A DNA stretch of 64,000 nt from Psammoneis japonica (Eukaryota): assembly GCA_008632985.1 (NCBI GenBank), contig QPGO01000005.1:1075607-1139606 (forward strand), written 5' to 3'. The notes under the pieces were generated by a model. The model was given only the letters and a program-made list of their open reading frames with translations, was not told the DNA's origin and searched no databases. The position numbers were made by a program, and so were the translations under genes. Below are positions 7,869-59,700 of the stretch, piece after piece. Each line of letters opens with the position of its first letter. Position 1 is the stretch's first letter.

Positions 7869-9208
7869 TTGACAATGGACGGGTGCGGATGGAAGCTTCA
7901 AAAGCTTCATGAAACACTCCATCTCCCAGTGTTTCTTTGTCATTGCCGACATGCGATGAACTTTGACGCAGGCTTGGGGGAACATCTCTTGAAAGACTTT
8001 TTCAAGCTGCTGTCATCTGCCGCACAACAACGCAACCTCGACAGTTTTCTGAAGCAGGTTGTGTCGCGCATGGAGGACCAAATGAGGCTCAACGCTGCAA
8101 TTTCAGCCAACAGTTGGATTTTGCCAAATGGGAAAAAGGAAACATCAAGAGTCAGGACAGACAATCACACGCTGGGAGGAAGTGCGTTCACTCTCACCTG
8201 CAACCAAGGGATCGGCACTGTGACGTTTGAGTGGAACAGCTTGCATGCTCGTTGCCAAGTTCATCCTGTGTTGCTGAACTTCATGTCGGAAAAGTGGGAG
8301 GATTGTGTTGGTGAAGACAGTGAAAATGCACATCTGACTTGCAAGACAGAGTTTTACAATGCAAACGGGGGGGATGCGCACCGTGCGCACCCCAATTGCA
8401 AAAGCGAAGGCCCATGGAATGACTTTGCCTGTGTGACCTTTGGCGACGCGTTCCAGACGTAGGTGGGAATCCGTGTGACATTGGGCCCGTAGACTTCTAC
8501 GTGCGAGCTCCGTAGTAAAATTATACGGTAATTAAAATGTCAATGATCGCCAACAAAAAATGAGGCAATTTTGCGAACGCACAAACTCGCACATGATTGA
8601 AGTACATCATTTTTTACTTAGCCAGTTACATTCTTCAGACATTGAAGAATGTAACTGGCGCATTATTTTTTTCTTTAAATTTGTTATATAAAACGTCTGG
8701 GGCTTCGCAAAACAGCGAGTCTGGACAATTTTTTTTAAATATCACACGTAGAAATCTACGTACGAAACATGCGACGGATGATAAAAATTATTGTTGTCAC
8801 ACGTCAGTACTACGAGCTCCCACTAGGGCTGGAACGCGTCTGGCACACGAAAGGGCGATCAACAGTTTCCCTCCCGTTTGCTGTGTTTCTTCTAACAGGA
8901 AGACACAGGATCGATTTTTGCAGTGGTCCATCCAACTGCTTGTCAAGCTGACCAGAGAACTGTGAGGCAACGGCATCAGCATGCAGACTTGGTCAGTCGC
9001 TGGCAGCTTGATCACAAACGAAACAACTGGCTTTCAACACCTGAGAAGACTCAGTGCTCACCCAAGCAACGGGTTGTCCCTGTCGAAGCAATTGGGGACA
9101 ATGTTTTGGTTTGTGAAGAATGTCCAGGAGCAGTGGAAGTGCAAGAAAAGGCCCTGTTTGTTTGGGCCACACAGGACAGAAGGAAGTGTTGGTCAGATTT
9201 GTTTCTAA
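7869..9208 (+). pseudogene. C-terminal part of a Plavaka/CMC-like transposase, interrupted by a MITE
   Basis: GWKLQKLHE...NFDAGLGEHLLK...AQQR and HRAHPNC..EGPWNDFACVTF. Removing the MITE and one TSD restores the frame (VTFGTRKGDQQFPSRLLCFF). Family recalled from motifs only. Confidence 0.6.
8445..8840 (+). mobile_element. MITE copy 1 (396 bp)
   Basis: TIRs GACGCGTTCCAG..GTGGGA / TCCCAC..CTGGAACGCGTC; 4-bp TSD TGGC (8441-44, 8841-44); TA-rich interior. Confidence 0.9.
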
Positions 9209-12093
9209 AATGGGGTGCGCGAATCAATCTGTCATTCACTCACAGTGATTTCCCAACTCTTTCTTGCAAACATGATGAATTTGATCCTTTCAGAATTGGC
9301 AAAGTCATTGTGGCACACGTGAAGCAGTGCGGTGCGAGCACCTTCTGTTGCTTTTGTTCTGATGTCTTCTTCTGAAACTCCAAGACAAGCTTCTTCCTGA
9401 TCAGAAGGCTTTCCCAACCACCGACACGACAGGAAACTCTCGATGTGTCAGATGTGTGCAGTTTTAGAGCAACCACTTCCTCATGGATTCTATGCAGTGT
9501 CCACTCACACGGTCCATTCAGTCATCCTGCGCCATGAAATGTTCCCTGGCAGCCACAATCGCCTGCTGAAAGTCGGCGCTGTGGTCAGGCTGGTTGACAG
9601 CCACCAATTGTGCCTCGATTTGCAATGCCAACTGCAGGACCCTTTCTCTTGCCACGGCTTCTTCGTCCATGGCCCGGATCGCGGTCCATGTCCCTCCCGC
9701 ATTTGATCTGTGCCTGGCCTCAGATCATGCAAAGCTTGCCACTGTTGCTGCAAGGCAATGTCTTTCCTCATCAAATCGTCGAGGGCCTCGTGGAGCAACA
9801 TGATTGCATCCTTCAGGACGCACTGCGGCTGTGTTAGATGTTGCCTTTGAAGGAGTGGCACGGCAAGGCGGTGAATGGATTTGTTGATGCTGTCAATCGC
9901 AGATTGCTCCCTCTCTGCTCTTGTGGCGTCTGTGTCAGAATTTGCCCTGAGGCTTCTCAGAAGCAACATCGAGTCACAGCTGTGCAGCATGTGCAGCCTG
10001 CATTCTGATTTTTGATGTCCCGCAATGGAGATTGGGAGCCCCAGTTCTTTTGCATCAAATGCGTCACTGTGAAGAAAGCGCTGGAAACTCATTTCCGCTT
10101 CGCTGCAATTTTCCACTGCAACAACACAGTCATTGTCTGAATGGTGTGTCTCGATTGATGACCCAATGCACTGCGCACAGATGTGCTCAAATTTGCAAGT
10201 GGTTGTTGCTTGATTTGACAAAGCACTCTCAAGTGCGGTCGTTGCAGCCACACCGGCACGACGGGCTTCTGCCATTGCTTCTGCCCGATCTTGACACAGC
10301 AGCCTTTGCATCCTTTGCTCTCTGTTCCTCCAAACAACAAGCAGCGTCAGTGTGAACAAAACCACCAACTGTCTCCATCATCCGGCGACGGAAATCCTCA
10401 TCAGCGGACAGACAGAGTTCATCTGACATGGTTTTCTTCCAATGCTCTGATTGTTGTGGTCGTGGGTCGCCATTGCATTCACCAGATTGGTCGTGCGCCA
10501 GTCACATTCGTTCGTCAGTCCTCTCGCGCGTCTTCTTCAACCTGTGCATTAGAAAAATCAACGGCACTTTAATGCCACAACCTTGACACAGCATTGTTCG
10601 ACAAGGTGAGAATGTTGTGACTTAACCTCACCCGGAATCGCAAACGGAGATGGTTCAGGAAACACTTTCACAAGCTCTTCTTTTGTGAAATTGTCTGGTG
10701 GAGGAGGAGGTGACTGACAAGTCATGCTGAGGGTCGGCCACTTTGTTCGGGAACATTCAAATTGTTCCTCGAGAGTCGGCACATCTTGGAGAATCAGCGA
10801 TTCGTTCTGAGAAACATCAGAAGGTTCGCTGTCTTTGGGGTTTTTGAGACTGGGGCTTGAGGAGCAAAGGGAGGCGGCCAAAGAGGTGGCAAGAAGAACA
10901 GAAGAGTTGGAGACAAGAAGAGGAGCACAGACAATCAATCAAACAATGTGATGGATTCACGCCATTTGGATTTTTTCGTTTCCGAGCATTTTTCGTGACG
11001 GATGGAATTGCATTGCCGATTTCTTTCTTCTTGCACTGAGTGGCACAGCCTCAAAACGACACCTTGCAGCCTTGCTTTTGCCGGAATTGTCAGCGGCAGA
11101 AACCACACGATCAATTTTCACACATCTTAAAAGAGTCTCATCGACATGTGTTGCATGCATTTGTTCTCGCTCGACATCAAGCATCACCAGTCGCATGGGC
11201 TTTTCCCAAGAATTTTTGTGTTGGCGGAACAACACAGGGCATTCGTCTTTGGTCGTCTCACAGTGACCAAGAGCCAGGAAATTCTCCAAAAAGTTGAAAC
11301 AAGTGGATGTCTCATCACATTCACTGAACAGGGAGCAAAGCCAATGACCGCAATCACCATTCCTTTCAGGTGCGCACGGCAGAATCTTGTCACGCAGAAT
11401 CAAAAAACCAATCCCTTCAAAACTTCTCAGCTCAATGTGCTTGACAAGTGGCTCTCCCTTTGGGTCGCACAATCCGGGATCATGGAGAAGCTTGTGCAAC
11501 ATGGAAATCTTTGCCATCATGTTGGTTGTGATGTCTGTTGATTTTGCCTTGTCACCGATGACTTTCATGTCCTCTGCTTTGGGAGCGCGGCGATGCTCCA
11601 ACGCGTGAGGATGTTTGGCGCCTTGACTGGAATGGCTCCATCCTTTTGTGGAAAGAAAGTGCAGCAAACTCTTGCACCCAAGTTCCTTTGCAACAATGCA
11701 GTTCACAGCCATTGGCTCCACAAAAAAAAAAGAGGTCTGCCCTTCGACTTTTGCCACACATGGGCAAGCGCGATCCAATTTGGAGAGGGGTCACAAGTGG
11801 AATCGCCGGTGGAGCTGAACCTTGGATTTCACCATCTCGATTGTCACTTTGACACGGCTCCGCTCATTGCTGTCGATCACTCCAAAACTGTTGGCAAAGA
11901 GAGATTCAAATGCGGCCTCCTTGAGGTGGGAACCATTGTTGTCTTGCGACAGAGAGGCAACCGACAGGTCACGTGGCGCCATGGTTGCTGTTCCAACGCC
12001 AAAAAATCTGGTTTCTGCAGCGATTCTGCGTTTTGAGGGACATCTTCCTCTCGATGATGTTCACCCAAATGCAAGAAATGCAGCGTGGCTTTT

Positions 12094-12482
12094 GACGCGT
12101 TCCAGGTCTAGGTGGGACCTCGTACTGCTGAACTGTGGCATCGATAGTTTTTTGAATCTCGTCGTATGTCGCGCACGTAGAATTCTACGTGATTTTTTTA
12201 TATTTTGTGTCATTTTACGGTACACTTATTGAGCGATCCGTCCAAAAACTTTTGACATTTTTTGTTACAGCGCGATTCTATAATGTCTTAAGAATCGCGT
12301 AGGGCAGGTGCATTTGCAAAAACGTCGAGTGGTAAGAGGCATAATTGTACCACAAACTTGGCCGTTTATTTGATGTTGAAGATAAATATATCCATTAATT
12401 AAATTCTCGTACTACGGACCTCGCACGTAGAATTCTACGGGCCCAATGTCACACGGAGTCCCACCTGGGGCTGGAACGCGTC
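12094..12482 (-). mobile_element. MITE copy 2 (389 bp), same family, opposite orientation
   Basis: Same TIRs; TSD TTTT; shares CCGTGTGACATTGGGCCCGTAGA with copy 1; TA-rich. Confidence 0.9.
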
Positions 12483-15400
12483 TTTTTTGGAACGGTGATG
12501 AGGAAACATCCAACGCGGCAGCGGCACATTTGAAATTCTTGCAAGAGAGCGGACAAGACATGTGGAATGAAGAGGACGATGCGGACGAACAGGCCAATTG
12601 GAGCACAGTTGTTGATTGAACAATTGGTGCACACTTCACATGATGAAATTTCATTGCATGCAATTGCAATGTTTGGCTTGTCGTCAAAGATCGTCAGTTG
12701 TTGTGAAAAAGGCAGAGCACAAAAATTAAAAGGCATCTGTGTTCAAACATGAAGAACAGCAGGAGATTGACAATTGACTGAATGACAAAAACCATTGTGT
12801 GCAGACAAATAAATTTTATAATGTGGCAACATAATTTTGTCATGCACGCAGACATTGCGATGTCATGCACTCTGATGGAGGTGCAGGAACAACACAACAA
12901 CTCTTTGAGTGCATTTGCCAGCAGTGGCTGGGGTGATGTCAACTGTCAGAGTTGCCACATTTGATGCAACAGTGTGCACCTGCCACAACAGAATGTTTTG
13001 CCAATGCAAGAACAGAGCACAAAAGAGCTCAGGACGTGTTCCAGCCGCGCGCGAACCAAATCGTGCACAAAAACGACATTTGCGCGATTTTTGCGCAGTC
13101 AGAACAGATGTGTTGGATGGATGGCCAGCCAGCACAAGAACAGATGCTGGTTGTTGTTGTTCACTTTCAAAAGAACAAGTGAAAATCAATGTTTGTGTCA
13201 CTTGAAGTGTGCAAATGCTTCCTGCGTCCAATGCCAGCTTCTTCTTTTCTTGTTTCTGAGTCTTGAAAAGAACGAATGGATGGCTGCAGCTCTTGGGTGT
13301 GGAATCTCGGCATCATGGCAGTCATGACTTTGCACTCTGTTTCTTTTTGAATCTTGAGCCAACAAAGTGAAGCAAGAGCAAAATTTTTTTGTGAAGCACA
13401 AGATCAGCTGTGGGTTGTTGCAGTGTGGGTCAAGTGACAAAAGAGGTGTGTGACAAAACAGCGCACTGCACCAAGAAAGTTGCCCCACTCTTGGGACATG
13501 AACAAAATGATGCTTGCATCAGAGTCACTTGGAGAAGCAGTGGAAAGTGCTGTTTGAACCATCTTCAAATCACTTTTGGCTCTTGATTGCCTCAAAGCAA
13601 TGGCCAACGATCGACAAACAGCACAAGAAAAAAATTGAAGATTGCTTGATCTTGTCAGCCGCTGTGGGGAAAGACATGGAAATGATGGGCTGGAGCTGTG
13701 GCTGACCATCATCAAAAAAGAGAACCTGGGACAAGGCCTTGGCATTTTCCTGGCCAGAGTTGTTTGCAGACATGTCCTCAACAGTGCTGTCCCAGGGAAG
13801 AGAGCATGCCTGTCACCTTTTGAAATGCCAGGCATTGTTGCCACCAGTTGGACCAGCTTGTGTTGCTGGTTTGATTGACGACAGCTGGACTCTGTGAAGC
13901 CAATGAAAGAGCCACCAAAATTTGACAGTGACAGAAGTTGCAACTTCAATGCCATTGTCTTGTTGGCTGCCTTTGAATTTGAGTGCTGCCCCGGTGCTGC
14001 TCTGCTCAGCACTGGCTTGCACAACAACTTTGTGAACCACCCGCACCCAACTCGCAAGGACTTCTTGGAGCATCATGCGTTGCATGCAAGAGAAGCAAGC
14101 ACTCCATTTTCTTTTGAGTGAGTGGTGTCTGTTGTCACTCTCACCCAGCAACAAAGAAGCAAAGCTGCTGAGGATGCCATGTGTGCTGCACTCACTGTTT
14201 GGACAGGAGCTCACTTGAAAAGAGTGTGCCAGAGGAGCTCCAGCCAATGTTTGTGCTTGAGCCACTCAAGTCATCCACATCCTTGACAGCTCATTTGCTC
14301 TCTTGCCAAGCAGAGTCTTTGTTGTTTCTTCTGTCTGAAGTGTTGCTCTCATCCAGCCAAACCTCAATGATGAAAATTTTCTTTCAACAAGCCCCTCAAG
14401 CTGATGCAGCCTTTTGTCATTTTGGTCCAAAAACAGAGAAACCTCAGCCATCTTGATCATGACAACCTGCCTGTTGCTTTCCATGAGCTCTGCTTTGTGC
14501 TCTCTTTTTCTCATTGCTTTGTGGTCCTTCAGCTGTTCATTGCCAAAGAAAAAAAGGAAATGGAGGACATTGTGTCAGACAGAGACAGTGCTTTGTGAGC
14601 CCTGCCGAAATTCCCTGGTGTGTGAAGCTTCTAGACTGTTGACTTGTTTGCCACCTGCAGAGTTGGTCCTCGTGTCCTGCTCAGCATCATCTTTGCATGA
14701 CATCTCAGTGTCAAACTTTGAAAAATCCAGCTCACTCTTCTCAATTTCAAGAGAGGTGAGCACTCCACTTTCTCTGAAACAAATCACCTCACAATGTGTG
14801 CTTTGACAGGCTTGCCAACTCTCTTGCCAAGCCAAGCAGCTGCAATGAAGCAGAGGGAGGAAGGGCTTTTTTCAAGCCCTGTTCTACAAACAACAAATGC
14901 AAGAACAACAGCTTTGCAGCTTGTCAACCCTGCTGCCTTTCCCACAGCAGCCATGAAGGCAGGGTGCTGCTGCAACTGCATCATTCTGCATGCTTTGCCT
15001 GTCTCCAACAATGCTCCACAGTCACAACTTTCTCTCAAAACTCAAAACTCAACAAAGCTTGTGTGCTCACACAAACAGCAATGGAAAACCTTCCCAGTGT
15101 GCAGCTTTTTGAGTTTCTTCCCTTGATGTTGCAAACAAGTGCATTTTGAATTGCACAATGCAAGCACACGGGAAATGTGGTTGTGTTGAGAGTGTTGAAA
15201 TTGAGTGCTGACATCTGAAGTGGAAAAAACACAAAGGTTGCCAAAGTGGTTTGAACAGCTGGAGCCAAAGGAAGGGTGAGCCATCCATGGGTGTTGAAGC
15301 ACTTGCATTTGTGGCAACCTTGACTGCTGCTTTCTTTTTTCAACCACATCTTTGTTGAGTTGAGCACTGCCAAACATGTGGAAGGATGCTTTGACGAGCT

Positions 15401-16779
15401 TTGTGTGTGTGTGGAGTGATCTGTGTGCAGAGATTTTGCATGACCCAAAACAGCAAAGGTGTCCATGTCAGGGGCAGAAATGTTTTGCAGAACATCCATC
15501 AGTTTTTGAAAAAGTCAAACAAAGCAGGACCACAGCAGCTGTCGATGAAAACAAAGTGTGTCAAAAGAAAAATGTTGAGATTCATTTTGTGCTGTGCACC
15601 TTGTGCACTGCAAAGATTTGGTCTGCATCAACACACAATTTTTAAAGCAGCAGCAAGTTTCAAAATTCACAATTTGAGCAATGGGCAATGGAGTCTTGCT
15701 GTTGACTTTTGTGTGCAGTTGACAAACCTTTGAGTCAAATTTTTGGCATCGCTGCTTTGTGTTTTGTTGGCCCATGCTTTTCTCTGACAAGTGCATCATG
15801 ACAAAAGGTGTCTGTGATGTGGTTGGTGGTTGAGGATCAATTGTCTTGTTGCTCAAGTTTTTGCCTTTTTGTGTGACTGTTGCTGGATGCCTCTTTAAGC
15901 CTCACCTCATTTTCCCATGACTCGTTGTTTTCTCACTGCAAAAGTGATGCAGCAGCAAGGAACATGATGGTGAGGGAAATGTGAAGGTGGCGTTGAGAAG
16001 ATTGCAGCACTTCCAATGAGCAATGGTTGTTCTTGCACTCCAAAATGCAGGCAAGGAAGATTTTGGTTGTTGCCAGTGGGATTCTCACTTTTTTGATGTC
16101 CCAACACCCCATGCAGTCTTCACCTCCAAGTGCTCTGAACAAGAAGTTTGTGTTTTCTTTTTTGCACTGTCCCAGCCAAGCTGTCCAATGGGACACAAGA
16201 CTTGTGGAACCATGATTTGGTTGTGTGGTGTGTGCACCTGCTGGTGTGCTCACTTGATTGAGTTCTTCAAGGAGCTCTCAGAGATCATCACATCAACAGC
16301 ATCATGCACCCACCTGTTTTGCTCTCATTGTTTGTGGCTCTTTTTGAGTTGGTGTGGATGCTTTGGGAATGTTGTCACCCTGTTGGCAATTTCAATCTGC
16401 TTCAGAGCCAACGCTTTCACATCAAGGTGTTTGTTCTTAAGAAAAAGCAATCGTGCAAACAGTTTGTGCTCATCTTCACCCTGGCAGGAATGGCATTGGA
16501 CCTCCCTGCTGCTCATGCAAGAACTTGATGTCACTCAGGAACTCAATCTTCACATCGTCACTAATTTTTGCCGCTGGGGCTCTCAAAGCAATGTCAAGCT
16601 CTGCCGAATGGATTGCCGCACCTCATCAAAACCCTCATCGTGTAACATGTGCCATCCCAATATCCCGGGTTCATTTAACGAATGCACACACTACTGAAAA
16701 TCTACTTCTCATGAGTGTTGGCGTTCGAATCGTTCATCTACTGTTACAAAAGTTCGCGCTCGTTCATCCTCTCCCGGAT

Positions 16780-28269: not shown

Positions 28270-28339
28270 AACGTGCTACAACGCATTGCCGTAGGTAATC
28301 TAAGGATGAATAGATCTGCCTTTGCGGCTGACCCAGTCG

Positions 28340-30660: not shown

Positions 30661-30919
30661 GGGGTGTTTAAGGTGCGATGGGGTCAGGGGTGGGATGAAT
30701 GGATGGCAGCCGGTTTTCGTTTAGGATTGTGAGGGGCGGGTGGAGGAAAAGGGGGGCCGCAGCGTGTGCGGGCGGGGCGGCGGGTCGGGTTTTGCAACAA
30801 ACGTCAAACGTGGCATAACCGCACGCAGGGTCAAGGGGCATGACAGCGCACTCTCGTCTCATTCCTCATCATTCTCTCTTCATTCAACAGTTATTTCGTT
30901 GCACGCAAGGCTTATTGCC

Positions 30920-38333: not shown

Positions 38334-38905
38334 ATTCACATTCTCCCGGGATAGCCTCCGCGCTTTTTTTGCATGAATGCGATTTTGGTGTGCGGGCGGT
38401 GTGCGTAGCGACTGTACCAGTAGCGTCGTACCATATGTGTCTGATTGTCTGTGCTTGTCGGTGTCTTTTGTTGCGATTTTTTTGTCTTTTCTACATGGCA
38501 CCTTTCCGCATGGTCATTGCAAAAACATCAATGGGATTCGTTTTGCTTAGAGCACCGAAGAGCGAGTCACATGTGCCGGTGGTGCCCAGTGCGTGTTCCT
38601 CCACTTCAGACGAGATGATGCACGCAGCGTCCCAGTGGAGACCAACCATGCAACACGAACAACTGCTCAGCAGATGACAGTCTGCTGCAGCAGCAGGAGG
38701 TGGCCTCAACTTCACTAAACGACTGTGTGAAATGGGCATTTTTGTCAACTTGAACCCATTTTTTGCCCCGCCTCGTGACCAGCAACCAAAGCTCCAGCGT
38801 CCCTTCCTCACACCTGCTTGGCCACACTCTGGCTGCACTCCCAACACACACTGGCCTCCACTTTTGTCACTTTTTCCCTGCAAAATGCTTTCATGTCAAA
38901 CTTGC

Positions 38906-39181
38906 TGACAGAAATTGAAGGCAAATGGCAAGAACTCAAACAATGGCTCCTCGCTGCTGTCTAAATGGCAGATGAGTCTCCGCTCAGAGACCGTTGCAGG
39001 AGCCGAAAGACGCACAAGTCGGTGCAATTGGGCTGCTGTCATTGTTCTTGTGAGCCTTGTGGCTCGAAAGCAAACTGCATCACGCGCGAACGCGTGGAGC
39101 TAAAGCACACAAAACTGTGCACGGCAAATTGAACAGCGCGCGACATTTTGCGCGCACCCAAATCCTGCTCAAATCCTGTCA
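38906..39181 (-). repeat. LTR copy A (276 bp, inverted)
   Basis: TGACAG...CTGTCA termini; reverse complement of copies B and C. Confidence 0.9.
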
Positions 39182-39579
39182 CTCCCCAGTTTGCTTGAGG
39201 AGTCACAGAAACAGATTTGACTTCGGATTGACTAAAGAACTTTGGAGTCAAAGAACCAAAACATGAGGAGACAAGAGAGGATCAAGATCCGAGAGCAATG
39301 TTGCATTCTCCAAGTGGGTCATCTTGAGATGAGCTGTGTCTCCCCAACTGCAGATGCCGTTGTGCTTTTCAAAGCTCAAGGCACACTTGGGATCTTGTGG
39401 GATTCCACATCCACACTTGCAATGGAAGGAGCAAAGCTTGGTCTGGTTGACAATGTTGAACGGCGGGGCAACATTGCAGGCGGCATGGCATTTGCACGAC
39501 TCGGGGAGCAGAGCAAGCATTGGTTCAAAGGCACAAGCGGTGGTCTTGTGTTCCACCAATCCGACTGCATCTCCTGAGA

Positions 39580-40415
39580 GACTGATCCAATTGGAGAAAC
39601 GAGTCTCAAGGTGCAAGCCTTCAGGGATCGGATTGGAGCAAGACATCTTGTGGTGCAAGGCTGCAGATGTCTGGTTGGGGCAATCAGTCCCGTGCTGCAA
39701 GACTTCTGGGATCCAAAAGGACTTGCCAGTCTTGTGACACGAGTCTTCGGGGATCCAGTCAGGAGGCCAAGTCTTGAGGTGCGAGACTTGGGGGATCCAA
39801 TCAGGAGGCCGAGTCTCATGGCACAAGACTTGAGGGATCCAATCCGGAGGCCGAGTCTTGAGGCATGAGACGTGGAGGATCCAATTGGGAGGCCCGGTCT
39901 CGAGGCACGAGATGTGGAGAGTCCAGTTGGGAGGCCTGGTCTCAAGGCACAAGACTTGGGGCATCCGATCAGGAGGCCCAGTCTCGATGTACGAGACTTG
40001 AGGCATCCAATCAGGAGGCCTGGTCTCAAGGCACGAGACTTGGGGGATCCAACCAGGAGACCTGGTCTCGAGGTGCGACACTTGGGGCATCCAATCAGGA
40101 GGCCTGGTCTCGAGGTGCGAGACTTGGGGCATCCAATCAGGAGGCCCAGTCTCGAGGTGCGAGACTTGGGGGATCCAACCAGGAGGCCCAGTCTCGAGGC
40201 ACGAGACTTGAGGCATCCAATCAGGAGGCCTGGTCTCGAGGTGCGAGACTTGAGGCATCCAATCAGGAGGCCTGGTCTTGAGGCACGAGACTTGGAGCAT
40301 TCAGTCAGGAGGCCTGGTCTCAAGGCACGAGACTTGAGGCATCCAATCAGGAGGCCCAGTCTCGAGGTGCGAGACTTGAGGCATCCAGTCAGGAGTCCTG
40401 GTCTCATGGTGCAAT
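39580..40415 (-). repeat. 42-bp tandem array, inverted copy
   Basis: Same unit order as 42580-43410. Confidence 0.92.
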
Positions 40416-41751
40416 GCTTGGAGGATCCGAAGACAACGAAGCTGCTTGGATGTCCTGAACTCCCCATCTGATGAACCGGTTGAACTGTTGTGAACAGATT
40501 CAATGACGGGAAAAGGAGGATTGACAGGATTTGAACAGGATTTGGGTGCGCGCAAAATGTCGCGCGCTGTTTAGTTTACCGTGCACAGTTTCACGTGCTT
40601 TAGTTCCGTGCGTTCGCGCGCGATGTAGTTTGCTTTCGAGCCACAAGGCTCACAAGAACAACAACAGCAGCCCGATCACACTGACTTGCACATCTTTCGG
40701 CTCCTGCAACGGTCTCTGAGCAGAGACTCATCTGCTGTTTAGACAGCAGCAAGGAGTTGTTGTTTGAGTTCTTGCCATTTGCCTTCAATTTCTGTCAGAT
40801 TGACAGTCTTGCTCATTGTCAACCCATTGAGCAACCGCCATCATCGTCGTTGATTTGCCGACGACGCCATCTCAATTCTGCGTGGACCTCCGCACGTGTT
40901 CTACGTACATCGGCAAGTCTACGCGCATTTGGGCACCAGGGCATCGGCAGGAAGTTAATGTCACCGTCAAGTCTCCTTGCCGCTGGACATCTGGATTGAT
41001 CACACTGCCTTTGATCGCTGAAGACATGCATTCAACGGTCACATCCAAGTCTGTCCTTGATCCTCATCCCTTGACATGTCCATTCAACGGTCAACGGTCA
41101 AGAACCCTGCATGTTCAAGGATCTCCGTCGCTGAAGACACACATGTGTGCATGTTTCACGGCCAAGGACTTGAACCCACTCTTTGGACTGTGGCTTTGCT
41201 GCCACTCTACAAGCACGCCGAGTCCATTGCACCTGATCTACCCCGGACTGCTGGTGCTCTGCAGTTCCACTGGGTCCACGAGGACGACTGTGAGAGCAAG
41301 CAGCCGTGATTGCAGCCTACGTTGGGGTGAGGGTGTTTTCCCGCGTTTGTTCGTTCGTCCACAGCGCCCAACGCCTGCGTCAACTGGCCAGCCTGATCGG
41401 GAAATCCAACCGACATAAAATGAGAACGGTTCGGGGGTCTTGTCCACCTCCAGTCAGCTCACCTGCAGGGGTTTACAACCCGCTGCTCCGCTCGCAAGCA
41501 ACCCAAAGCGCCGCTGGCTGCGGGTTCGGACGTGCCGGCACAACTCTACGGACCGGACAGGAAGTTTGGCACTTGACAACGAATGGGACAGCACAACCCG
41601 GCGACTTCTGATTAAAAGACAGTCCAAGATTTCAAGTCAAGTCTAGCTCAAGTCAAGTCTTTTTCAAGCCAAGTTCCAAGTCAAAACTCCGAGTCAAGAT
41701 CGCGCTCTAGATTGGATCCTGTCTTTTGTTTCTACTGCACCGTCCTCCGTC

Positions 41752-43747
41752 ATGGTTCTCACGTGACAGCAACAAACCGAAAGCTTCAAATGCATTCTAG
41801 GCACTGTGCTCAATCAAGACGATGACAGCCCTCTTCGTTCTGCCCTGTCCATCAATGGGGGTTGAATCGTGCGAGGAATTGTTCACGTTCTCACCCACCC
41901 AAATTGACGCCCTCACTTACAGAGACGGCGCCAATGTAGTGCCTTTGCCATGGACCCACAGAAACCTCCTAGCAGCTTTGATCAGCTTCTACTTTGTCAA
42001 AGTTTGCAACGGTGATGATGTGACCAATGAACCCCAGTTGCTCACACCCGAGGAATTTCGCAACTGCCGCCTTGGTCCGGACTGCTTGACCTCTCTAGCC
42101 ACTGGCGCAGCACCCTCCGCACCTGTGCCGAGTCCCTTGCCATCCAAACCAGGTGAACCCAGTGCCATTTTGACACCAGCCTTGCACTGTGCCGCCACTC
42201 AGGTGTCCCCCAGAAGTGGTGTCAGTCGCGCCCCACATGTCTTGACCAACCCGCCTGCAAGCAACCTCGGCCCAGTGCAGGATTGCAGCCCTTGCACAGA
42301 CCCGCACTTCGAGACCAGTTGGGAGACTCCACCCATGGCTTCCAAAGCTACAGCCTTTGCACCCCGCAAACCACTTGCTGCCAACCTCCACATGTCGACC
42401 ACTGTCACCCTTCACAGCCTTCGTTTGGGAGGTGATGGAGATGACAACTTGCTTCTCGCATCTCCTGATGGGGAGCCTCCTTTTCTCGTCATTGAATCTG
42501 TTCACAACAGTTCAACCGGTTCATCAGATGGGGAGTTCAGGACATCCAAGCAGCTTCGTTGTCTTCGGATCCTCCAAGCATCGCACCATGAGACCAGGAC
42601 TCCTGATTGGATGCCTCAAGTCTCGCACCTCGAGACTGGGCCTCCTGATTGGATGCCTCAAGTCTCGTGCCTTGAGACCAGGCCTCCTGACTGGATGCTC
42701 CAAGTCTCGTACCTCGAGACCAGGCCTCCTGATTGGATGCCTCAAGTCTCGTGCCTCGAGACCAGGCCTCCTGATTGGATGCCTCAAGTCTCGTGCCTCG
42801 AGACTGGGCCTCCTGGTTGGATCCCCCAAGTCTCGTACCTCGAGACTGGGCCTCCTGATTGGATGCCCCAAGTCTCGTACCTCGAGACCAGGCCTCCTGA
42901 TTGGATGCCCCAAGTGTCGTACCTCGAGACCAGGTCTCCTGGTTGGATCCCCCAAGTCTCGTACCTCGAGACCAGGCCTCCTGATTGGATGCCTCAAGTC
43001 TCGTACATCGAGACTGGGCCTCCTGATCGGATGCCCCAAGTCTTGTGCCTTGAGACCAGGCCTCCCAACTGGACTCTCCACGTCTCGTGCCTCGAGACCG
43101 GGCCTCCCAATTGGATCCTCCACGTCTCATGCCTCAAGACTCGGCCTCCGGATTGGATCCCTCAAGTCTTGCGCCACGAGACTCGGCCTCCTGATTGGAT
43201 CCCCCAAGTCTCGCACCTCAAGACTTGGCCTCCTGATTGGATCCCCGAAGACTCATGTCACAAGACTGGCAAGTCCTTTTGGATCCCAGAAGTCTTGCAG
43301 CACGGGACTGATTGCCCCAATCAGACATCTGCAGCCTTGCACCACAAGATGTCTTGCTCCAATCCGATCCCCAAAGGCTTGCACCTTGAGACTCGTTTCT
43401 CCAATTGGATCAGTCTCTCAGGAGATGCAGTCGGATTGGTGGAACACAAGACCACCGCTTGTGCCTTTGAACCAATGCTTGCTCTGTTCCCCAAGTCGTG
43501 CAAACGCCATGCCGCCTGCAATGTTGCCCCACCGTTCAACATTGTCAACCAGACCAAGCTTTGCTCCTTCCATTGCAAGTGCGGATGTGGAATCCCACAA
43601 GATCCCAAGTGTGCCTTGAGCTTTGAAAAGCACAACGGCATCTGCAATTGGGGAGACACAGCTCATCTCAAGATGACCCGCTCGGAGAATGCAACGTTGC
43701 TCTCGGATCTTGATCCTCTCTTGTCTCCTCATGTTTTGGTTCTTTGA
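41752..43747 (+). pseudogene. Deleted gag-pol remnant with a 14-aa repeat
   Basis: MVLT*QQQTESFKCILGTVLNQDDDSPLRSAL (frameshift)...IDALTYRD..PLP. The 3' segment NQTKL.SF.CKCGC.IP.D...NG...W.D resembles the copia YKYGY.IP.D...NG..W.DA pre-RT linker. Confidence 0.7.
42580..43410 (+). repeat. 42-bp tandem array, about 17 clear plus 3 degenerate units (ETRPPDWMPQVSYL)
   Basis: Unit GAGACCAGGCCTCCTGATTGGATGCCTCAAGTCTCGTACCTC. Confidence 0.95.
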
Positions 43748-46700
43748 CTCCAAAGTTCTTTGGTCAATCCGAAGTCGAATCTGTTTCTGTGACTCCTCAA
43801 GCAAACTGGGGAGTGACAGGATTTGAGCAGGATTTGGGTGCGCGCAAAATGTCGCGCGCTGTTTAGTTTGCCGTGCACAGTTTTTTGTGCTTTGGTTCCG
43901 CGCGTTCGTGCGCGATGCAGTTTGCTTTCGAGCCACAAGGCTCACAAGAATGATGACAGTGGCCCGATCACACCGACTTGCATGTCTTTCGGCTCCTGTG
44001 ACGGTCTCTGAGTGGAGACTCATCTGCCATTTAGACAGCAGCAAGGAGTTGTTGTTTGAATTCTTGCCATTTGCCTTCAGTTTCTGTCACTTGCTAAAAA
44101 TGACGTCCAAAGGTGTTTGCCTGATGGCGAGAGCTTCCTCTCTATTTGGCAGAGTCACTCAAGACACATCTTCCCACTCAAATGCTCCGCTTCTGGCTCT
44201 CAAATCCTTCCAGCGCAAAGCTCCTCCTCTTCACTGGCAGCCATTTGTCCAGAGCAGTGCCCTGCAAATGGTGGCATGCCGAAGGGGGCGAAGGGTTGTG
44301 TGTTGTGTGCAACACTTTTTGGCCACTGCCATCTGTCTGACAGCTGAGGTTTCCAAAGGGGGCTGTTGCTCAAACAACCTTCAACATCGCCCCCTTCCAT
44401 GCCTGCATCAAGGTTGCTCTTGTCCATGTGCAGGCACACTGGTTTGGGTGGCCCGAACGTTTTGGTGGGGTTGTGGGAGGGTCTTTTGACAAAGACACTG
44501 TTGCAAACACAGCCGCTGTCTTGACTTGCATCCCTTCCTTTCAGCACGAGGATCAATGCCCTCAATGTGCACGATGTCACTTCTTCATGTTCACTCATTT
44601 TCCAAGGTGTTGGCTCAAACATTTTTGAACTTGAAGCTGAGGCAGGGAAAACCAGCGGTGACATCTCAGGCTCAATCTTGGGCGGTGTTCCTGAACACTG
44701 TGCTGGCAAGAAAGAAAGACTCAAAAGTCTCAACAAACCATTTGCAACAGCTGTCATTTTGGCGCCACCACCCAGTTGAACTTGAGGTGTTCTTGGATGC
44801 ACCGCCCCATTCTTGCGGCTCATGTGGGTGTCTGACTTGGTGAAACCCACGCTGCCGCACCTCCAATTGCCACAAGCTTTGTCTGGTTTTGAAAATGCAT
44901 GCAGCAACTCCAGCACACCACTTGCAGCATCATGAAATCATGAGATGAGAGGAGCATTTGAAGATCTTGGGCATCTTTGTTTCTTGCCACCAACGTGGTT
45001 GACTCTGAAGTGGTCAGAGCAAACAAACTCATCTCTCTTCTTTTTGCTGCATCACAATTCTACGCAAGCGCCAGTGGGGTTGTCCCATGTGAGAGTGTGG
45101 TGGCATGCCAACCTCCTTGGGCACTTTGGGATGTTGGGCAGTTGCACCAATGACAGAGAAACCAAAAGGCATTGGAGGGGATGCTCTGTTGTGTCTGCGT
45201 TCGGGAGAGTGGCACCACCATGGTGTGGTGTCTCTTTGCATTTTCTTTCCCAATGTCAGTGTGTTTTCTGCGTCAATTAAATTCTGCGTGATTCAGCAAT
45301 TTCCAAGTCAGCTGTTCCAGCACAAATTTCATGTGCAACCCTGCATGTTTGGCCAGAATTTTGAGGTGATGACTGTTTCAGGTTTGTCTTTTTGTTCTTC
45401 TCACCAATGCACTTCCTTTGAGTTTTCTTCCCAATGAGCTGCAATCCATGATGGACATTCTACGGTGTTCCAAAGTGGGTCATCATGAGTCTTTCTCAAG
45501 TGGCTTGCATCTCCAAGTCTTGGTGTTGCTCCTCTTGCTCTTCGATGTTGCAGTTTCAGCACACAATTTCTGTGCAATTCTGTGCATGACAGAAATTTCA
45601 TCCGGCATTTCCGACCATCATTTCCCTTTCTTTGTTGGGGTCCATGTTGGACTTTCTTGGGTGTTTTCATCCCAGGAATTTCTCTCACTTCTCTTCAAGC
45701 ATGTTGTCTTTGGAGACAGACACGTGTTTGGTTTTCTGCAGTGTTTGTTTTGGTGTCTCCCAAGTGGTGTGGTTGGGCTTGTCCATTCTTCGAGGCACAG
45801 CAACTGTGGTTGCCACGTGACAAGCATCCAGTTGGTTGCTGTCCCGACTTCAAACAAACAGCCTCTTTCTGATGGTGCATTGACGGCATTGCCTTCGGAC
45901 AATGTGTCAATGGCATTGTCTCTCTGACAACGTTTGACAGCATTTTAATTGTCCCTGCCACCCTTCATGGGTGCTGGGGAATGTGGGTGTGCTGTGGTCG
46001 GTGTTGGCGTGGGTGGCAGCGAGGCAGCAGTGAAATGGATTTCCAGCTTTTTTTCTTTCTGCTGCATCATTTAAATTGAAAGCAATGCTTGATGAGGGCC
46101 GTGGATGTGGTGCATTGCAATTTCTCTTTTTGCAGCTGAGCCTGCATTTTTGGCAATGCACAACTCATTTGCATTCATCTTTGTCTTCCAGAGCCACTTT
46201 GGCTTGCTCAATGGTGGTGGCTGGTGCTTTCCTTTGGCTTCAAAAGGTGCCCCTTTTTGTGTGCATCACAATGCTTTCCACAAAAAAGTGTTTTCTTCAC
46301 ACACTTGTTGTCCTTTTTGTTCTTTGATGCTGAGTGGCGCGTGCTCTTGTTTGTGAGTTGCGCTGTTTTCTTTTTTCTTTTTTCTTCATTTCTGACTTTG
46401 CTCAGCGGGTGATCTTCTCCTCTCCACATCACACTTCATTTTCATGGTTGCAGATTCCACCTGTGGAATGCAAGTGCTTCAAAATTGTGTCGTGTTTGTG
46501 ATTTGGAATGTGCGCGTGCACTGACGCTACAAAACGCAGCACTGTGATGACGATTTTTAGCCATGGTCTGCTGTGCTTGCAATTGAATGGCACAGAAAGC
46601 AAACGTGCCCAGCTCTTCCCAGCTGTGATGCAACCATGCAGTTTCAAGAAGATTTCTTTGCTGAAAATGTGCAGCGCAGAAACACACCTGGTTTTGACAA

Positions 46701-46825
46701 CATTGTTGCACAACAAATGTGCGAGTGATGGCTGGCATGCACTGCTTTTGTCTGGCAGCTCCGAGAGTGCGTGCAGTTGCAGCGGTGTGGTGATGTGTGG
46801 ACATCCCCACCCACAGGTGGATGGC

Positions 46826-47232
46826 GATGGGTTCCAGTCCTGGCCAGGTGGGACTCCGTGTGACATTGGGCCCGCAGAATTCTGCGTGCGAGCTCCGCAG
46901 TGAATTTGTCAAGCAATGAAAATGCAAATGATCGCCAACAGAAAAAGAGGCAATTTTGTGAATGCATCTCCTCCTCCACACTTCCAGTGCATCATCAACA
47001 GTTTGCCCGGGTGTGTTCTTCAGACATCAAAGAACACACCCAGAGCATTTTCATTCTCACAAATGTTGAAAACAGAAAGCCTTTGGCTTCGCAAAATGGG
47101 GAGCATGGGGCAATTTCATAGAATGTCACATGCAGAAATCTGTGTGCGCAACATGCCACACGATCCAAAAAACTCTTGATGTCACAGCACAGCAGCACCA
47201 GTGCGAGGTCCCACCCAGAGCTGGAGCGCATC
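46826..47232 (+). mobile_element. MITE copy 3 (407 bp), hypermutated
   Basis: Degenerate TIRs GATGGGTTCCAG / CTGGAGCGCATC; TSD TGGC; collinear with copy 1. Confidence 0.88.
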
Positions 47233-47950
47233 TGGCACACGGTGTTCGAGGGACAGTGCATCACAACATGTCGTCCAACCAAGACCTCCCCATCCCTGCT
47301 CCACCCGCCCCACCTTGGAACACCAAAACCCGTTTTCAACACCCAGCTGCCCATGCCGCATGTGCCTGCGCCCAACAATCCCCATCCGCCATCCTCCCTG
47401 CCGCCACCTCCACCTGTGGCAAACCATCTCTGCCGAAAACGCTTTGGCCCAACCCACCACTCTTCTACACCGTCACAATGGGGTCTGCAGAGCCTGAGCC
47501 TTGCAATTGCCAAATCACTCGCTGACCAACTAACCCGCTACTCCACCAAACTACAATCTCAAACATCAAACCCCAACTCGAAATCCATCCCTTTTCCCAC
47601 ACCTAGCCCTACATGACTCAGTGCGCAGTTCCCACCATTGCTCCGCGTCTGTCCCTCCCCCGCGCCACTGGGTGACGTTGGTTGCACGTGAACTCCACGC
47701 GCGCGTGCTGCTAGCACAGCAGAGGTAATTAGTTTCCCCAATCAATATAAAATGCTACGAATTCGGAAACAATTGCGCGTTTTCGTGCGCGAAGCTCAAA
47801 TTTTCATCCCGAAGCAACGATCGGAGCTTCGCGCAAGATTTGTGTAGAAATGCGTAGAAAGCATGCTAGAACGAGAAAATGCCATCTGAACACTGCTCCT
47901 GCATCATCACCATGATACTGTGGCGTCGTTCGTGATCGTTTCTTACCATC

Positions 47951-51486: not shown

Positions 51487-51819
51487 GGTCCTGCTTCTGC
51501 AGAGAAAATGAGGTGCGGTGCAGAGAGTTTGCAGCATGCAGAGTCTCTACTAGTATGTTTTCTACGTATTTCTACACAAATCTTTGCGCGAAGCGACGAT
51601 CGGAGCTTCAGGCGCGATATTTGAGCTTCGCGCACGAAAACGCGCAATTGTTTCCGAATTCGTAGTAAATCCACAATGGCGGCACGCAATCGAGGCCCTG
51701 TGCTGCATGCAAGAGGTTTAAGAATGATGCTGACAAACAATTCCACCAATCATGACAATCACAACAGTCGTTTACGGCGTTACTGTCGAGAGAATGCAAT
51801 GAGTTCGATTAGTCTTGCG

Positions 51820-55223: not shown

Positions 55224-58200
55224 AGGAGGACCTTCGCTCTTGGAAAGCGTTGTTTGTCCGTCCTGCATGTTCTTTGTTGAATAACACCATCGAGAAAACA
55301 TCATACAAAAATTAGCGGCTTCACCACGGAACGAGAAAAAATGCATTTTTAGTAGCAAACTTCGGTTGAGAGTGAGGAGCAACCATGGTTTTCCTGCGTG
55401 TTTAGCATCACGGCTCATTGCATGCGATTGGAGCGAACCAATCTGATTCGACAGAGAGGCGATTACCTCGAGCCAACGTTTTATATCCATGATGAACAGG
55501 CTTTGAATAGACCCTATAAGGGTGTTCTTTTATCATTCTTTGTAGATAATTCCGTAAGGGAGTTCTTTTTCCATTCTTTGTGATTAATTCCGTAATGAAG
55601 TGTAAGCGTCTCATCCGCATCAGGATAGGATGTAATGCATTGTCAAGGCCAGAAAGAAGTGAACGAGGAACACAATTGTCGTTCCCGCGTTAGTGAATTA
55701 AGGATGTATCTACGTGCTGCGGTCTAATTTAAAATAGCTCGCATTTCCCGCACTTCACCGTGACATTTTGACCTGCCTCGGAACACCCCCGAACACTTGT
55801 GTTTCCGTCAAACCCTCGTGAGGGCTGTCAGACGGCCAACAAGAGCTGCACATTTAGCACTTCAAATTCCACTTGTCGGCCTGTGCCCTGTTGTCAGGTC
55901 GAAAAAACCGCCAATTTTTGCTAAAATCGGATGGCATGCTGGTGTCACCTTTCAGACAACAGGTTGCCACCCATCTCCAAGCCAGCTGGGCTGCCAATTG
56001 TGGCACTGCAACACTTGCGACCATTCTCAGCATCACTTTCACAATGGCTGCGAGACAACAAACTCAATGAGGCACAACGTGTTGTGGAAGAGAGTGGAGC
56101 CCACTTGGGTTTGCACCCAAAGTGTGCGAGCGTCCATTGTGCCAGTCATGAGGGGCCCAGAGTTGCCAACAAAGCAACTCAAGAGGTCAGGGGAGAAAAT
56201 GGCAAAGAGAAGGAGAGAGCGGCAAGGCAACAAAACATTGCACTTCTTGTGCCATTGGCAATGAGTGGATCAACAATCGCGCTCCTTTGGGCAAGAGTGA
56301 GGAGCCCTGGAAGTCAACCCCACAGGAGCCAGCAGTTGATTTGGAGAGCAGCTTGTGTTGTCAGACAAAAAGGCTGCAGAGCAAAGGGTGGGTGCACACA
56401 GATGACTTTGGCAAGACAAAATGCACAAACACTGCTTTGAGCTGGCAGAGAGCCGTGCTTGGGGACAGAGAAAAGCCAGCATCAAAGCAAAGGAAAAGCA
56501 AAGCACCAGCCTGCTGAAGCTGACAAACCCCATGGAGAGGAGAAGAAGCTGGGCATGCTCTGGTCTTCTCAGCCTTTTTGGTGCAGGGTGTTTTGCTCTT
56601 TGCCTGGAGAATGCTGAGAAAAGATTGTCAAAGTGCGCACACATTCTTTCTCACCCATCTTGCAAACAGATGGCGCGTTTGAGCTGCCTTCACAAAGTGA
56701 CCCCTTTTGCAATGATCATGATGCTGCAGTGTGCAAGGCAACAAAATGACAGGAAAAACATGCTTCAATGTGCTGCTGCTTGTGGGGTGTTGCAGATGCA
56801 AGCAAGTGGCCAAATGCAGTGGCGCACATTCATTGTGGGACCCCACAAATGTGTGCGAAGGGACCCGCAACCCAGAGCTGTGTGGATTTTTGCGTGCAGG
56901 CATGGCATTGTGAACAAAAGCAATTGCTGTGCTTCTGGATGATGATCTTCTTTTGTCTTCCATGGGTGGGAACAATCCCAGCCATGTTCGTCAGTGAAGA
57001 TGCCATCGCCAGTCTTGCCAAAAGTTGACCTGCCTTCAAAAACAATTGTGCAAGTGCGTGCAACACAATGCTGCATGAAATGAGGGATGCTGGAGCAGCA
57101 GGCCTGGTGTGTTGACATCATGTGTGCACTTTGCATGACAACACTGTGAAAACCACATCATCACATGCAACATCCTCACTCTCCAAACTCAAGCCAAAGA
57201 AGGTTTTTGTGGGCAGCCATGATGAAAATGCAACAATTCTCCCTGGGGGCAACAAGTGTGCATGTTCTCAATGGCGCAACACAGGGCTGTCAAATGTTCT
57301 TTCCTTTGTCGACACATGCAACATTTTTGGTTGAAAACAGCCCAAAACAACATCTTGTCATTGGCCTGCAAACCTGAAAGACCCCTGTGCATGACCCCGC
57401 ATGTCACAGCTCAAAGTTGTGTCTGGGCTGAAGCTCCAGTTGCCCAAAACTCTGTGCTTTTCAGTGGCTCTGCACTTCAGCAGACTTGGGCTGAGGCAAA
57501 GCTGTCAACTTGTCTTGAAGAGCAGCACAGCAAAACTTGAATGAGAGCACCACTTTTGATGCCTCCATCATGAGACCGATGCCGGAACATGTGACATTGG
57601 GTGAGCTCTCAAGGGCAAGTTTTGCAACATTTTCTTTTGTTGTGCTCACAAGTTGATTGTTTTTAACATCTTTGTTGTTGGGGTGAAGTTTTCTTGCCCA
57701 TTGCTTCAGAAAGAATGAGAGTCAGAAGAACAGCAAAGAACAGATGAAAATTTTGTTGCTCGGGTCAAATGTCCAAGGAGCCACTCCCTGTGCCAGTGAT
57801 TGGTGCACCCACTTTCTAAGATGTGAGCCACCTCAAGAGCTGTGGATGACCAGCTCAGATGTGTGCTCCATCAACAACAGATCTCCAAGAGGTGCCACAC
57901 AACAACTTGGGAACTTTCTCTTTGCTCTGCGGCATCAGCCTGGCAAGCCTGGTCTGTCATGAACTCCAGCCCAGCAGCTTCCAGCATCTCAAGTGCTTGC
58001 CAAGCTTTGCCGTTCATTCCAGCCACCCGTGGTTGTCACATTCAAGGACTCACAGCAAGATCATGCTGTCAATTTGATGACAGTGCACAACGAAACTTCT
58101 CACAGTCTGGGTTAATTTGGTTGTCAAGCTGAGCAACTGGGGAGCCACTTCCAGGCAGATCTGTGCTTGTTTCTGCTCACATGAAACCACCCACCAGAAA

Positions 58201-59153
58201 AGCTGGGAACACCTGCTCTCCCTTTCTGTGCACACACAAGTGAGCAAATGTGGTTGCATCCAATGCACTTCCACTTGGACCTTGGAAATGGCGCTGCCAG
58301 TTGACTCACCTGTGGCAGAAATTTTGATGGACAGCACAGAAACGTGTGTGAAAGTGCAATGGCTGACAGCAACACCCTTCCCACAGGGTCAACAAAGACA
58401 TTCCAGGTGTGTGATTGCCACTCAAAAAAATTGACATTGATGGTCGAGCACCACCACACTTGGCACTTTTTGTGTGGCAACACCCAACCACAATGGCTGG
58501 GCGGCTCAATCTGTGCCACCCCTTTTGTTGAGCTGGCCAATCGGTGCATTTGCTCTGGCATGTGCTTCAGTCAGAGAGAGCTTTGAAACCTCTGCCACCC
58601 ACAGACTCTGGCGAATGGAGGCAACAACAGCAAAAATGCATGTGAGAAGCTGTCATGTGAAAAAAGAGGCATTTCAAAGAAAAAATTGAGCAGGAATCCA
58701 TGCCATGTGCTCCCTCATCAGAGTGCGCATTGCAGTGATCAACACTCCCATTTTCACAGTGATTTTCATTCCTTTTGTAGATGATGTTTTTGCAGTTTCA
58801 AACCTTGTCAGTTGTGCAGCTGGCAACAAATCTTTGTCTGTCAAAGTCACTTGTTTTTGCTGTGGAGTCCTCTTTTTAACCACAAGAAATCAACATTGAT
58901 TTTAAAGCAGCTCCCCTTTTCCCTGTCTTTGTGCATGCATTCCTTTGCTGCAGAAGCTGGCAATCAATGTCATCTGATCACCACACGTCACATGTTGATT
59001 TTTGCATTTGACGTGATGTGTGCAATGAATTTGTGCCGCTTTCCCAGCCCAACAATGAGCTGTTGCTTTTGCTTTTTCACATGGGTTGTCAATGAACACT
59101 GAGTCAATGCAATGGTGTCAGCTGCATTGCATTTTCAACTGGCCTGTGCTGGA

Positions 59154-59700
59154 GACACGTTCCAGGTCTGGGTGGGACCTCATGCTGCTGAACTGTGACA
59201 TCGACAGTTTTTTGAATCGCGTCGCATGTTGCGCACGTGCATTTCTACGTGATGTTGGCAAAATTTTGTGTGACTACAGTGCAATTGTCAGGCGATCCAT
59301 TCAACAACTTGGAATCTTTCGAAAATGACCCGTGATGCAAAAAGCACAAAACAACTGTGGGCGCCTGTGGAATCTGCGCGTTTTTGTGCTGAAACTGTCA
59401 TGTTCACAAAATTTGTGCAAAAACAGACTTGACTGTCATCGGGTCAGGTGCACTTTTGCAAATGCATTGAAGAAAAATGCACCTGATCAGAAAACAGTCA
59501 AGTCCATTTTTCGCAAAGTTAAAATTCACTGAGGACAGACAGACAGACTTTTCCATGATTTTCTTGGTGCTGTTCCACACACTTCTGCGCAAATGACTCT
59601 AAAGCGCAAAAGATTGCTGTTGAATGTTTTTTCCTTCTACGCCATTCTTGAGTGTCTTAAGAATGGGGCAATGCTCCTGAATTTCAACCGCCACACCTTT
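59154..59700 (-). mobile_element. One end of a longer member of the MITE family
   Basis: GACACGTTCCAGGTCTGGGTGGGACCTC... aligns with 12094-12240; family hairpin at 59642-59666; no partner end seen. Confidence 0.8.

Follow-up and report, generated by a model that had tools for sequence, protein, structure and literature searches.

TpA-poor blocks of the window and its contig

We analyzed a stretch of 64,000 nt from contig QPGO01000005.1 (positions 1075607-1139606; hereafter the window) of the 91.4-Mb genome assembly of the diatom Psammoneis japonica (GCA_008632985.1). The window carries four copies of a miniature inverted-repeat transposable element (MITE) that differ in their content of the dinucleotide TpA, and the pattern to which they belong is, with high confidence, one of TpA hypermutation that acts after insertion and according to position. 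The TpA content of the window is two-state, with an observed/expected TA ratio of about 0.6 in the blocks holding host genes and of about 0 in the blocks between them. The host genes supported by Pfam (RPA2, kinases, ALG3, DnaJ and HSF) lie within the TA-rich blocks, and the identity of RPA2 was backed by a sequence search of the PDB. Among homologues with a named source, the best matches to the ALG3 protein come from diatoms.

A two-state TA map of 864 kb of the same contig assigned 39% of the DNA to the TA-poor state, in 58 blocks with a median length of 4.5 kb. Observed/expected ratios in the 236 TA-poor 1-kb intervals were 0.05 for TA, 0.33 for CG and 1.73 for TG/CA, compared to 0.60, 0.98 and 1.15, respectively, in the 452 TA-rich intervals, with nearly equal GC content in the two classes (0.495 vs 0.475). 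Pfam returned no match for any of the 94 open reading frames (ORFs) from TA-poor blocks, including those of the block that hosts MITE copies 1 and 2, and the host elements are therefore left unnamed. A crude coding model placed the first coding-like stretch a median of 360 bp inside the edges of TA-rich blocks. The same model left gaps of up to 4.4 kb in TA-rich DNA and flagged 27% of TA-poor DNA as coding-like, and these gaps and flagged segments leave unproven the proposition that the process affects every non-genic stretch by default.

An 18.8-kb contig of a public sequencing run (X1), which may be the source of the assembly itself, matches window positions 13350-31830 with 11 substitutions. 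The match includes two TA-free blocks and rules out TpA depletion as an artefact of assembly. Eight of the 11 substitutions fall inside 5.4 kb of TA-poor blocks (p=0.003), seven of them of the CpG type and one a TA>TG change at one of 14 remaining TAs, while the gene blocks, which contain 517 TAs, have no substitution at a TA. The 11 substitutions may represent alleles within one sample; this DNA was found in a single sample and study.

Conversion of individual MITE copies

The element is non-coding, about 390-400 bp long, bounded by terminal inverted repeats, flanked by a 4-bp target-site duplication (TSD) and present in high copy number, which are the properties of a MITE. A 15-mer of the element that contains neither TA nor CG has 908 exact matches genome-wide, against 0 for the reversed control. 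Elements of the Sola superfamily have 4-bp TSDs and are mobilized by a Sola transposase with matching ends. The first 100 of the 908 motif matches listed (contigs C1-C16) led to the recovery of 102 elements, 87 of which were used (15 partial, nested or unclustered elements were dropped). Together with 79 of 90 copies picked by similarity (11 duplicates were dropped) they provided 166 aligned copies, and rate fits were made on the motif-picked set minus four suspected misalignments (n=83). Clustering in purine/pyrimidine space defined subfamilies A, B, C and E, and copy 4 of the window represents a fifth, D. Ancestral TpA sites were defined by a TA majority in A and B and partly by mixed TG/CA columns in C and E; since the latter calls are circular for a count of sites with both outcomes, A and B carry that test.

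Copies 1 and 2 were described in the sequence-only reading as TA-rich islands within TA-free hosts, and TA counts of copies and hosts agree with that description (observed vs expected TA in the hosts: 5 vs 164, 9 vs 208 and 11 vs 308); the sequence strings quoted for the copies were likewise all present at their expected positions. An empty site for copy 1 (joint 8440-8841, 4-bp overlap) is found in other copies of the host repeat; it derives from paralogous host repeats and is not a strain allele. Changes in copy 3 involve 30/31 TpA, 9/21 CpG and 4/248 other sites. In the first part of copy 4, 9/11 scored TpA are converted with respect to a TA-rich D copy (L245) used as reference, and the copy is interrupted by an element of another MITE family (F) and then truncated. 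The proposal that the four copies form one age series has to be amended, as the comparison runs across subfamilies: copies 1 and 3 share only 70% identity, and copies 1 and 2 match near their ends only. The series holds, however, within subfamilies.

A copy has about 30 TA steps at the outset, and their replacement by TG or CA proceeds in each copy separately. In the 166 copies, the 5060 cells that correspond to ancestral TpA hold 1035 TG, 1235 CA, 13 CG and 68 other states, so that the same ancestral TpA within a subfamily reads TG, CA or still TA depending on the copy. Both outcomes were recovered at 26/30 sites among 13 heavily converted B copies and at 17/31 sites among five heavily converted A copies. 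Identical changes inherited from one master copy, the case that the sequence-only reading had set against its own view, are not what the alignments contain, since pairwise agreement of outcomes lies at or below the expectation for independence (B 0.66/0.69, C 0.64/0.65, E 0.68/0.73). It is accordingly very improbable that TA-poor copies are subfamilies descended from TA-poor masters or products of homogenization by gene conversion. The four window copies do belong to different subfamilies, two B sites (356 and 359) carry lineage-shared changes, and one C pair, possibly a duplicated locus, agrees at all shared sites, but every subfamily holds both TA-rich and TA-poor members, and, for most of the changes, the independent outcomes in each copy refute master-copy inheritance. 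In young B copies, a few conversions were probably inherited from partly converted source copies.

The 4-bp TSD was intact in 27/32 lightly converted copies and in 16/20 and 18/35 copies of the other conversion classes, figures that partly reflect mis-called boundaries and were not used as a clock. The youngest copies also reside mostly in TA-erased DNA, with both 1-kb flanks holding fewer than 20 TA in 62 of the 87 motif-picked copies. This excess, in a region of which about 39% is TA-erased, is a matter of insertion preference or of purging near genes.

Table 1. MITE copies and TpA-erased blocks, in window coordinates
Feature	Position	Strand	Remarks
TpA-erased high-copy repeat block, host of copies 1 and 2	5896..13300	.	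Summed contig depth in the thousands vs 60
MITE copy 1, subfamily A	8445..8840	+	29 TA in 396 bp; TSD TGGC; 1/30 scored ancestral TpA converted
MITE copy 2, subfamily B	12094..12482	-	29 TA in 389 bp; TSD TTTT; 2/30 TpA converted
TpA- and CpG-erased block	13350..16642	.	Single-copy at 95% identity; elsewhere only short 70-84% matches
TpA-erased single-copy block between ALG3 and DnaJ gene	28572..30891	.
TpA-erased block, host of copy 3 and of a 1.6-kb inverted repeat	38549..47465	.
MITE copy 3, subfamily C	46826..47232	+	1 TA in 407 bp; TSD TGGC
TpA-erased block, host of copy 4	55736..64000	.	20 TA vs 554 expected
MITE copy 4, subfamily D, first part	59154..59305	-	2 TA in first 152 bp
Family F MITE, 317 bp, nested in copy 4 and unrelated to it	59305..59621	+	About 90% of its own TpA converted
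Copy 4, short remainder past the nested element	59622..59670 (approx.)	-

The inverted repeat at 38906-44089, possibly a foldback-type element, has arms of 1614 bp that are 96% complementary and contains 42-bp tandem arrays; the 59 scored differences between its arms include 22 of the CpG type, 8 of the TpA type and 16 CA/TG pairs. A likely decayed transposon of the Tc1/mariner type, with patchy TA loss, extends from 47755 to 51665, where inverted ends of 116 bp (88%) surround a DDE_3-like ORF at 47936-49045 (E 2.6e-5, below the cut-off). On the minus strand, an open frame of 1887 codons with internal 336-bp repeats but no Pfam match (18335-23998) is TA-rich despite these repeats, and a spliced contig from sequencing run X2 extends over it. 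This run is listed as DNA, yet its contigs skip five intron-like stretches; it behaves as RNA and covers TA-rich genes. Its missing cover over TA-poor blocks was not used as evidence.

Age, specificity and position of the conversions

The converted fraction varies continuously from 0 to 1 across copies. The regression on divergence proposed in the sequence-only reading gave a positive correlation: in the 83 motif-picked copies, TpA conversion correlates with CpG decay (rho 0.81), with other divergence (rho 0.66) and, when only changes private to a copy are counted, with the resulting divergence at rho 0.40 (p=2e-4). A three-rate clock fit yielded TA : CG : other site = 1 : 0.15 : 0.010 with a floor of 0.4%, and private changes alone gave a ratio of 230-280 per dinucleotide relative to an ordinary site in copies more than 35% converted. 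Overall, the relative TpA rate is 100-280 per dinucleotide against an ordinary site. TpA loss is thereby estimated at about 50-140 times background per base (the dinucleotide ratio halved), and per dinucleotide it outpaces CpG decay by a factor of about 6-10.

Growth of conversion with residence time, as had been proposed, is borne out by the correlations with CpG decay and private divergence. Its gradual and episodic versions are inseparable with one genome, because private divergence is equal in light and half-converted copies (22/7092 vs 11/3293 in A/B copies that are <25% and 45-80% converted, p=0.85). CpG loss differs between the same classes (12/757 vs 35/346, p=7e-10). A copy can be stripped of 75% of its TpA and show no measurable neutral ageing, and individual copies illustrate the point: L250 has 26/30 TA, 0/25 CG and 0/250 other changes, and L283 has 28/38, 2/17 and 0/267, respectively. 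The process is either too fast for the neutral clock or occurs in bursts. Dating of diatom repeats by divergence is consequently inflated, since copies that are 10-15% diverged can be less than 1% old by neutral sites.

The specificity of the process is narrow. Outside TpA, A>G changes occur at a background of 0.008-0.012 per site, like other transitions (107/11284 after A, 79/6617 after C, 53/7009 after G); non-CpG C>T changes occur at 0.007-0.010, and C>T at CpA (64/6560) is also at background. Even ApA is not raised (0.0095, vs 45% per TpA). Conversion of TpA depends on the base following the A (C 0.283, T 0.296, G 0.142, A 0.127), a roughly twofold preference for pyrimidines that is mirrored by the TAs surviving in erased DNA (236 TA-poor kb), which are mostly TTAA, CTAA/TTAG and CTAG. 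The 81 copies examined for strand coordination revealed none (adjacent p=0.085, per-copy p=0.64), and conversions were not clustered (p=0.29 and p=0.48; the mid-conversion version of this test has low power).

These figures bear on two alternatives. Removal of TpA by GC-biased gene conversion, or by selection acting against TA as a target site, would agree with the observed direction, from A:T to G:C, but is hardly credible: at the same loci the loss of CpG runs the other way, A/T outside TpA changes at background, and GC content barely differs between the two classes of DNA. Selection would in addition have to fix, implausibly, 26 changes in a dead 390-bp element without a neutral change. Error-prone repair or replication, either as patches of polymerase eta or iota after deamination of 5-methylcytosine (5mC) or as heterochromatin with mismatch repair turned off, could also drive A:T>G:C changes. 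TpA and CpG loss co-vary and affect the same blocks, and C5-methyltransferase-like genes are numerous in the genome (27 matches), both of which speak for such a process. In somatic hypermutation, mutagenesis by polymerase eta at WA motifs favours A>G after T, as here. However, polymerase eta hits TA and AA alike, whereas ApA stays at background in the diatom, where we found neither clusters nor strand runs, neither patches nor transversions; moreover, copies L250, L274 and L280 combine 60-87% TpA loss with zero CpG change. We therefore regard error-prone synthesis as improbable.

The second MITE family, F, reveals the effect of position. It has 32 motif matches, and 28 full, non-duplicate copies were aligned (nine truncated or duplicated loci were dropped). 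Where the flanks are TA-poor (21 copies), conversion extends to the two halves of the element alike (187/225 vs 192/244, p=0.24). In four copies at block edges, conversion reaches 24/44 in the half facing the erased block and only 5/48 in the gene-side half (p=5e-6; when a doubtful site is left out, p=5e-5 for 20/40 vs 5/48). Each of these edge copies (L095, L103, L104 and L111) has next to its spared end an ORF that is directed away from the element, with its first methionine 235-657 bp off; one of the ORFs has a SET domain and another is 2OG-Fe(II)-like (just under the cut-off). Three copies between TA-rich flanks are converted at 2/68 sites. Conversion does not exceed 16% in any of the five A/B copies whose immediate flank is TA-rich, while 55/82 others exceed 30% (p=0.005), a comparison that is confounded by age. 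The two-state map, the confinement of Pfam-supported genes to TA-rich blocks and the edge copies concur in showing that the process is regional and spares genes. Residence time is thus not the sole variable, since it depends on where the genes lie which half of an element undergoes conversion. Position counts as much as age: location gates the clock.

Family F elements at L095, L103, L104, L111 and L112 precede ORFs at a distance of 100-650 bp, and in every case it is the same end that faces the ORF. This placement could possibly result from insertion bias or from retention as part of a promoter or boundary.

The edge also bears on a homology-sensing process that resembles repeat-induced point mutation (RIP) and acts in bursts on repeated DNA, for example during sexual reproduction. 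Mostly repeats are targeted, and bursts are permitted by the equal private divergence of light and half-converted copies and by the over-dispersion of losses described below. Hypermutation affects some vegetative lines but not others in the rhizarian alga Bigelowiella natans, according to the accessible part of a preprint (bioRxiv 10.64898/2026.01.13.699255), and diatom DNMT4 may be a relative of RID, as available sections of another source have it (PMC9998398). Yet the conversion edge cuts through uniformly repeated family F elements, blocks that are now single-copy, such as 13350-16480 (though possibly old repeats), are erased as well, strand polarity is absent, and the duplicated dCMP-deaminase locus L297/L298, which may be a haplotig, stays TA-rich. 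In addition, the hypermutated viral region of B. natans is itself single-copy in the accessible preprint text (bioRxiv 10.64898/2026.01.13.699255). Taken together, we find a RIP-like process quite improbable.

Candidate mechanism and related systems

For the separate loss of TpA in gene-free blocks, with the gene-start side spared, we lean towards a chromatin-guided deaminase that works on single sites; that its chemistry is the deamination of adenine has, in our judgment, an even chance. New insertions would turn into silent chromatin (the CpG decay of inserted elements implies that they carry 5mC), and the mutator would reach this silent DNA but not promoter-proximal DNA. A non-processive DNA adenine deaminase, guided by chromatin, would convert the A of TpA to inosine at single sites, and inosine left unrepaired would be read as G at replication. 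A TpA changed on either strand would cease to be a target, which would account for the observed rarity of TA>CG, and transposons would be inactivated within less than about 1% of neutral divergence. A review table lists 5'ACG as the context of TadA/ADAT2 and 5'UAG as that of ADAR in the portion available (PMC10661471). The context measured here fits TadA/ADAT2 better than ADAR. A preference of engineered adenine editors for TAC found no backing in the text consulted.

Several observations weigh against the deaminase proposal. Losses of TpA and CpG do not follow one clock and are over-dispersed (deviance 139 vs 82 +/- 12, maximum 105 in 25 simulations). The edge test involves four loci, all in the same orientation, and two of the four ORFs have no Pfam match; the three family F copies between TA-rich flanks belong to a younger sub-lineage, so their comparison is confounded by age. 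ADAT2-like and TadA-like genes are present, but such genes are universal, and the TadA/ADAT-like genes L299 and L302 resemble ordinary tRNA-editing homologues with no expansion among nine matches. An endonuclease V gene is present whose product could remove inosine. In favour of the proposal, by contrast, a search for AAG/MPG glycosylase gave no match in this assembly, its control having matched in 4/14 genomes. None of the gene finds pinpoints the agent. Finally, because TpA is palindromic, sequence cannot tell whether A or T is the modified base.

This symmetry makes a modified thymine the main rival. The T of R-T-A would be oxidized in silent chromatin to 5-hydroxymethyluracil (5hmU) or 5-formyluracil and mispair with G, resulting in T>C changes. 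The TG/CA products would be identical, and the measured context can equally be stated as a purine before the T. 5hmU occurs in dinoflagellate repeats, and 5-formyluracil causes T>C mutagenesis. There was no Tet_JBP match in the assembly, but a control search was equally blank, which makes the result uninformative. We consider thymine oxidation unlikely.

The gene searches also produced several finds of separate interest. C5-methyltransferase-like genes on contigs C297 and C301 (L311-L313 and L317) lie in TA-erased DNA with 4.5-6.8 TA/kb, two of them with a stop in the match, and are probably methyltransferases borne by mobile elements and subject to the same process. The dCMP deaminase gene L297/L298 has tandem domains and is identical on contigs C41 and C317, as a haplotig or a recent duplication. 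On contig C79, a deaminase domain (L301) is in one frame with a downstream region that appears 2OG-Fe(II) oxygenase-like, as judged from translation.

A TpA-specific A:T>G:C mutator has one prior report in the literature searched, a preprint from 2026 that deals with viral DNA inserted into the genome of a rhizarian alga. For two such regions of the B. natans genome, Mettrop et al. measured de novo changes with a TpA>TpG/CpA spectrum, and the parts available to us propose an ADAT2-type deaminase and list transposon domains among TpA-depleted sequences (bioRxiv 10.64898/2026.01.13.699255). Compared with what is accessible of that account, both systems are restricted to TpA>TpG/CpA, consist of pure transitions, are regional, affect silent foreign DNA and reach at least a 100-fold local excess; the diatom changes are almost solely of this kind (2270 TG/CA vs 13 CG and 68 other). 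The diatom process thus qualifies as one of the B. natans type at the level of sequence (spectrum, region and rate), and a shared enzyme, ADAT2-like as proposed there but itself unproven, is conceivable by analogy. Differences are also evident against the same portions of the preprint. The host here is a stramenopile instead of a rhizarian, and the word 'diatom' is absent from the preprint text available. Erasure extends over 39% of 864 kb, compared with two regions and 124 clusters, and reaches a TA observed/expected ratio of 0.05, compared with 0.45 in the viral region; in the diatom it is documented on transposon copies, with a positional edge, and goes together with slower CpG decay. The B. 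natans rate was measured, whereas that of the diatom is relative. A hand estimate that borrows the baseline of 3.5e-10 from B. natans puts the diatom rate at about 4e-8 to 1e-7 for each TpA and generation, which is some 100-300 times lower than in the B. natans hot region (210 changes, 6169 TpA and 3132 generations in the accessible account).

The process shares with RIP of ascomycetes its dinucleotide-specific transitions and its sharply bounded blocks of mutated repeats beside intact genes. Fungal RIP changes C>T at CpA and creates TpA; it is premeiotic, needs RID and leaves strand-polarized runs. The chemistry here is the opposite, with TpA lost and CpA/TpG gained. Homology does not set the boundary, which falls inside repeated F elements (four loci only), and strand runs are lacking, a weak test if many rounds overlap. 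Decay of CpG in diatom transposons by 5mC deamination, with DNMT5, is described in the accessible part of a previous study (PMC9998398) and explains why the blocks also show CG>TG/CA changes, at a slower pace. It cannot remove TpA, the loss of which is 6-10 times faster and also occurs in copies without CpG change.

A literature search that left most subscription journals uncovered found no report of TpA hypermutation in a diatom or stramenopile. The diatom signature, which is near saturation across transposons, extends the TpA mutator to a second major lineage and to the control of transposons, and the MITE series yields a relative rate, a context, non-processivity and a gene-near boundary for the hunt for the enzyme. 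By analogy, the pattern is likely a DNA-editing defence akin to the B. natans process. Should a DNA adenine deaminase prove to be the agent, the engineered adenine base editors would have a counterpart in nature. More tentatively, and with less than even chances, we entertain an as yet undescribed genome defence shared by the stramenopiles, alveolates and rhizarians (SAR), in which a natural DNA adenine deaminase would edit TpA across silent chromatin by default and promoter-proximal chromatin alone would be exempt. In that event, two fifths of the diatom DNA examined would have been rewritten, new transposons would be killed faster than by CpG decay, and MITE families would serve as a log of the kinetics, context and reach of the defence.

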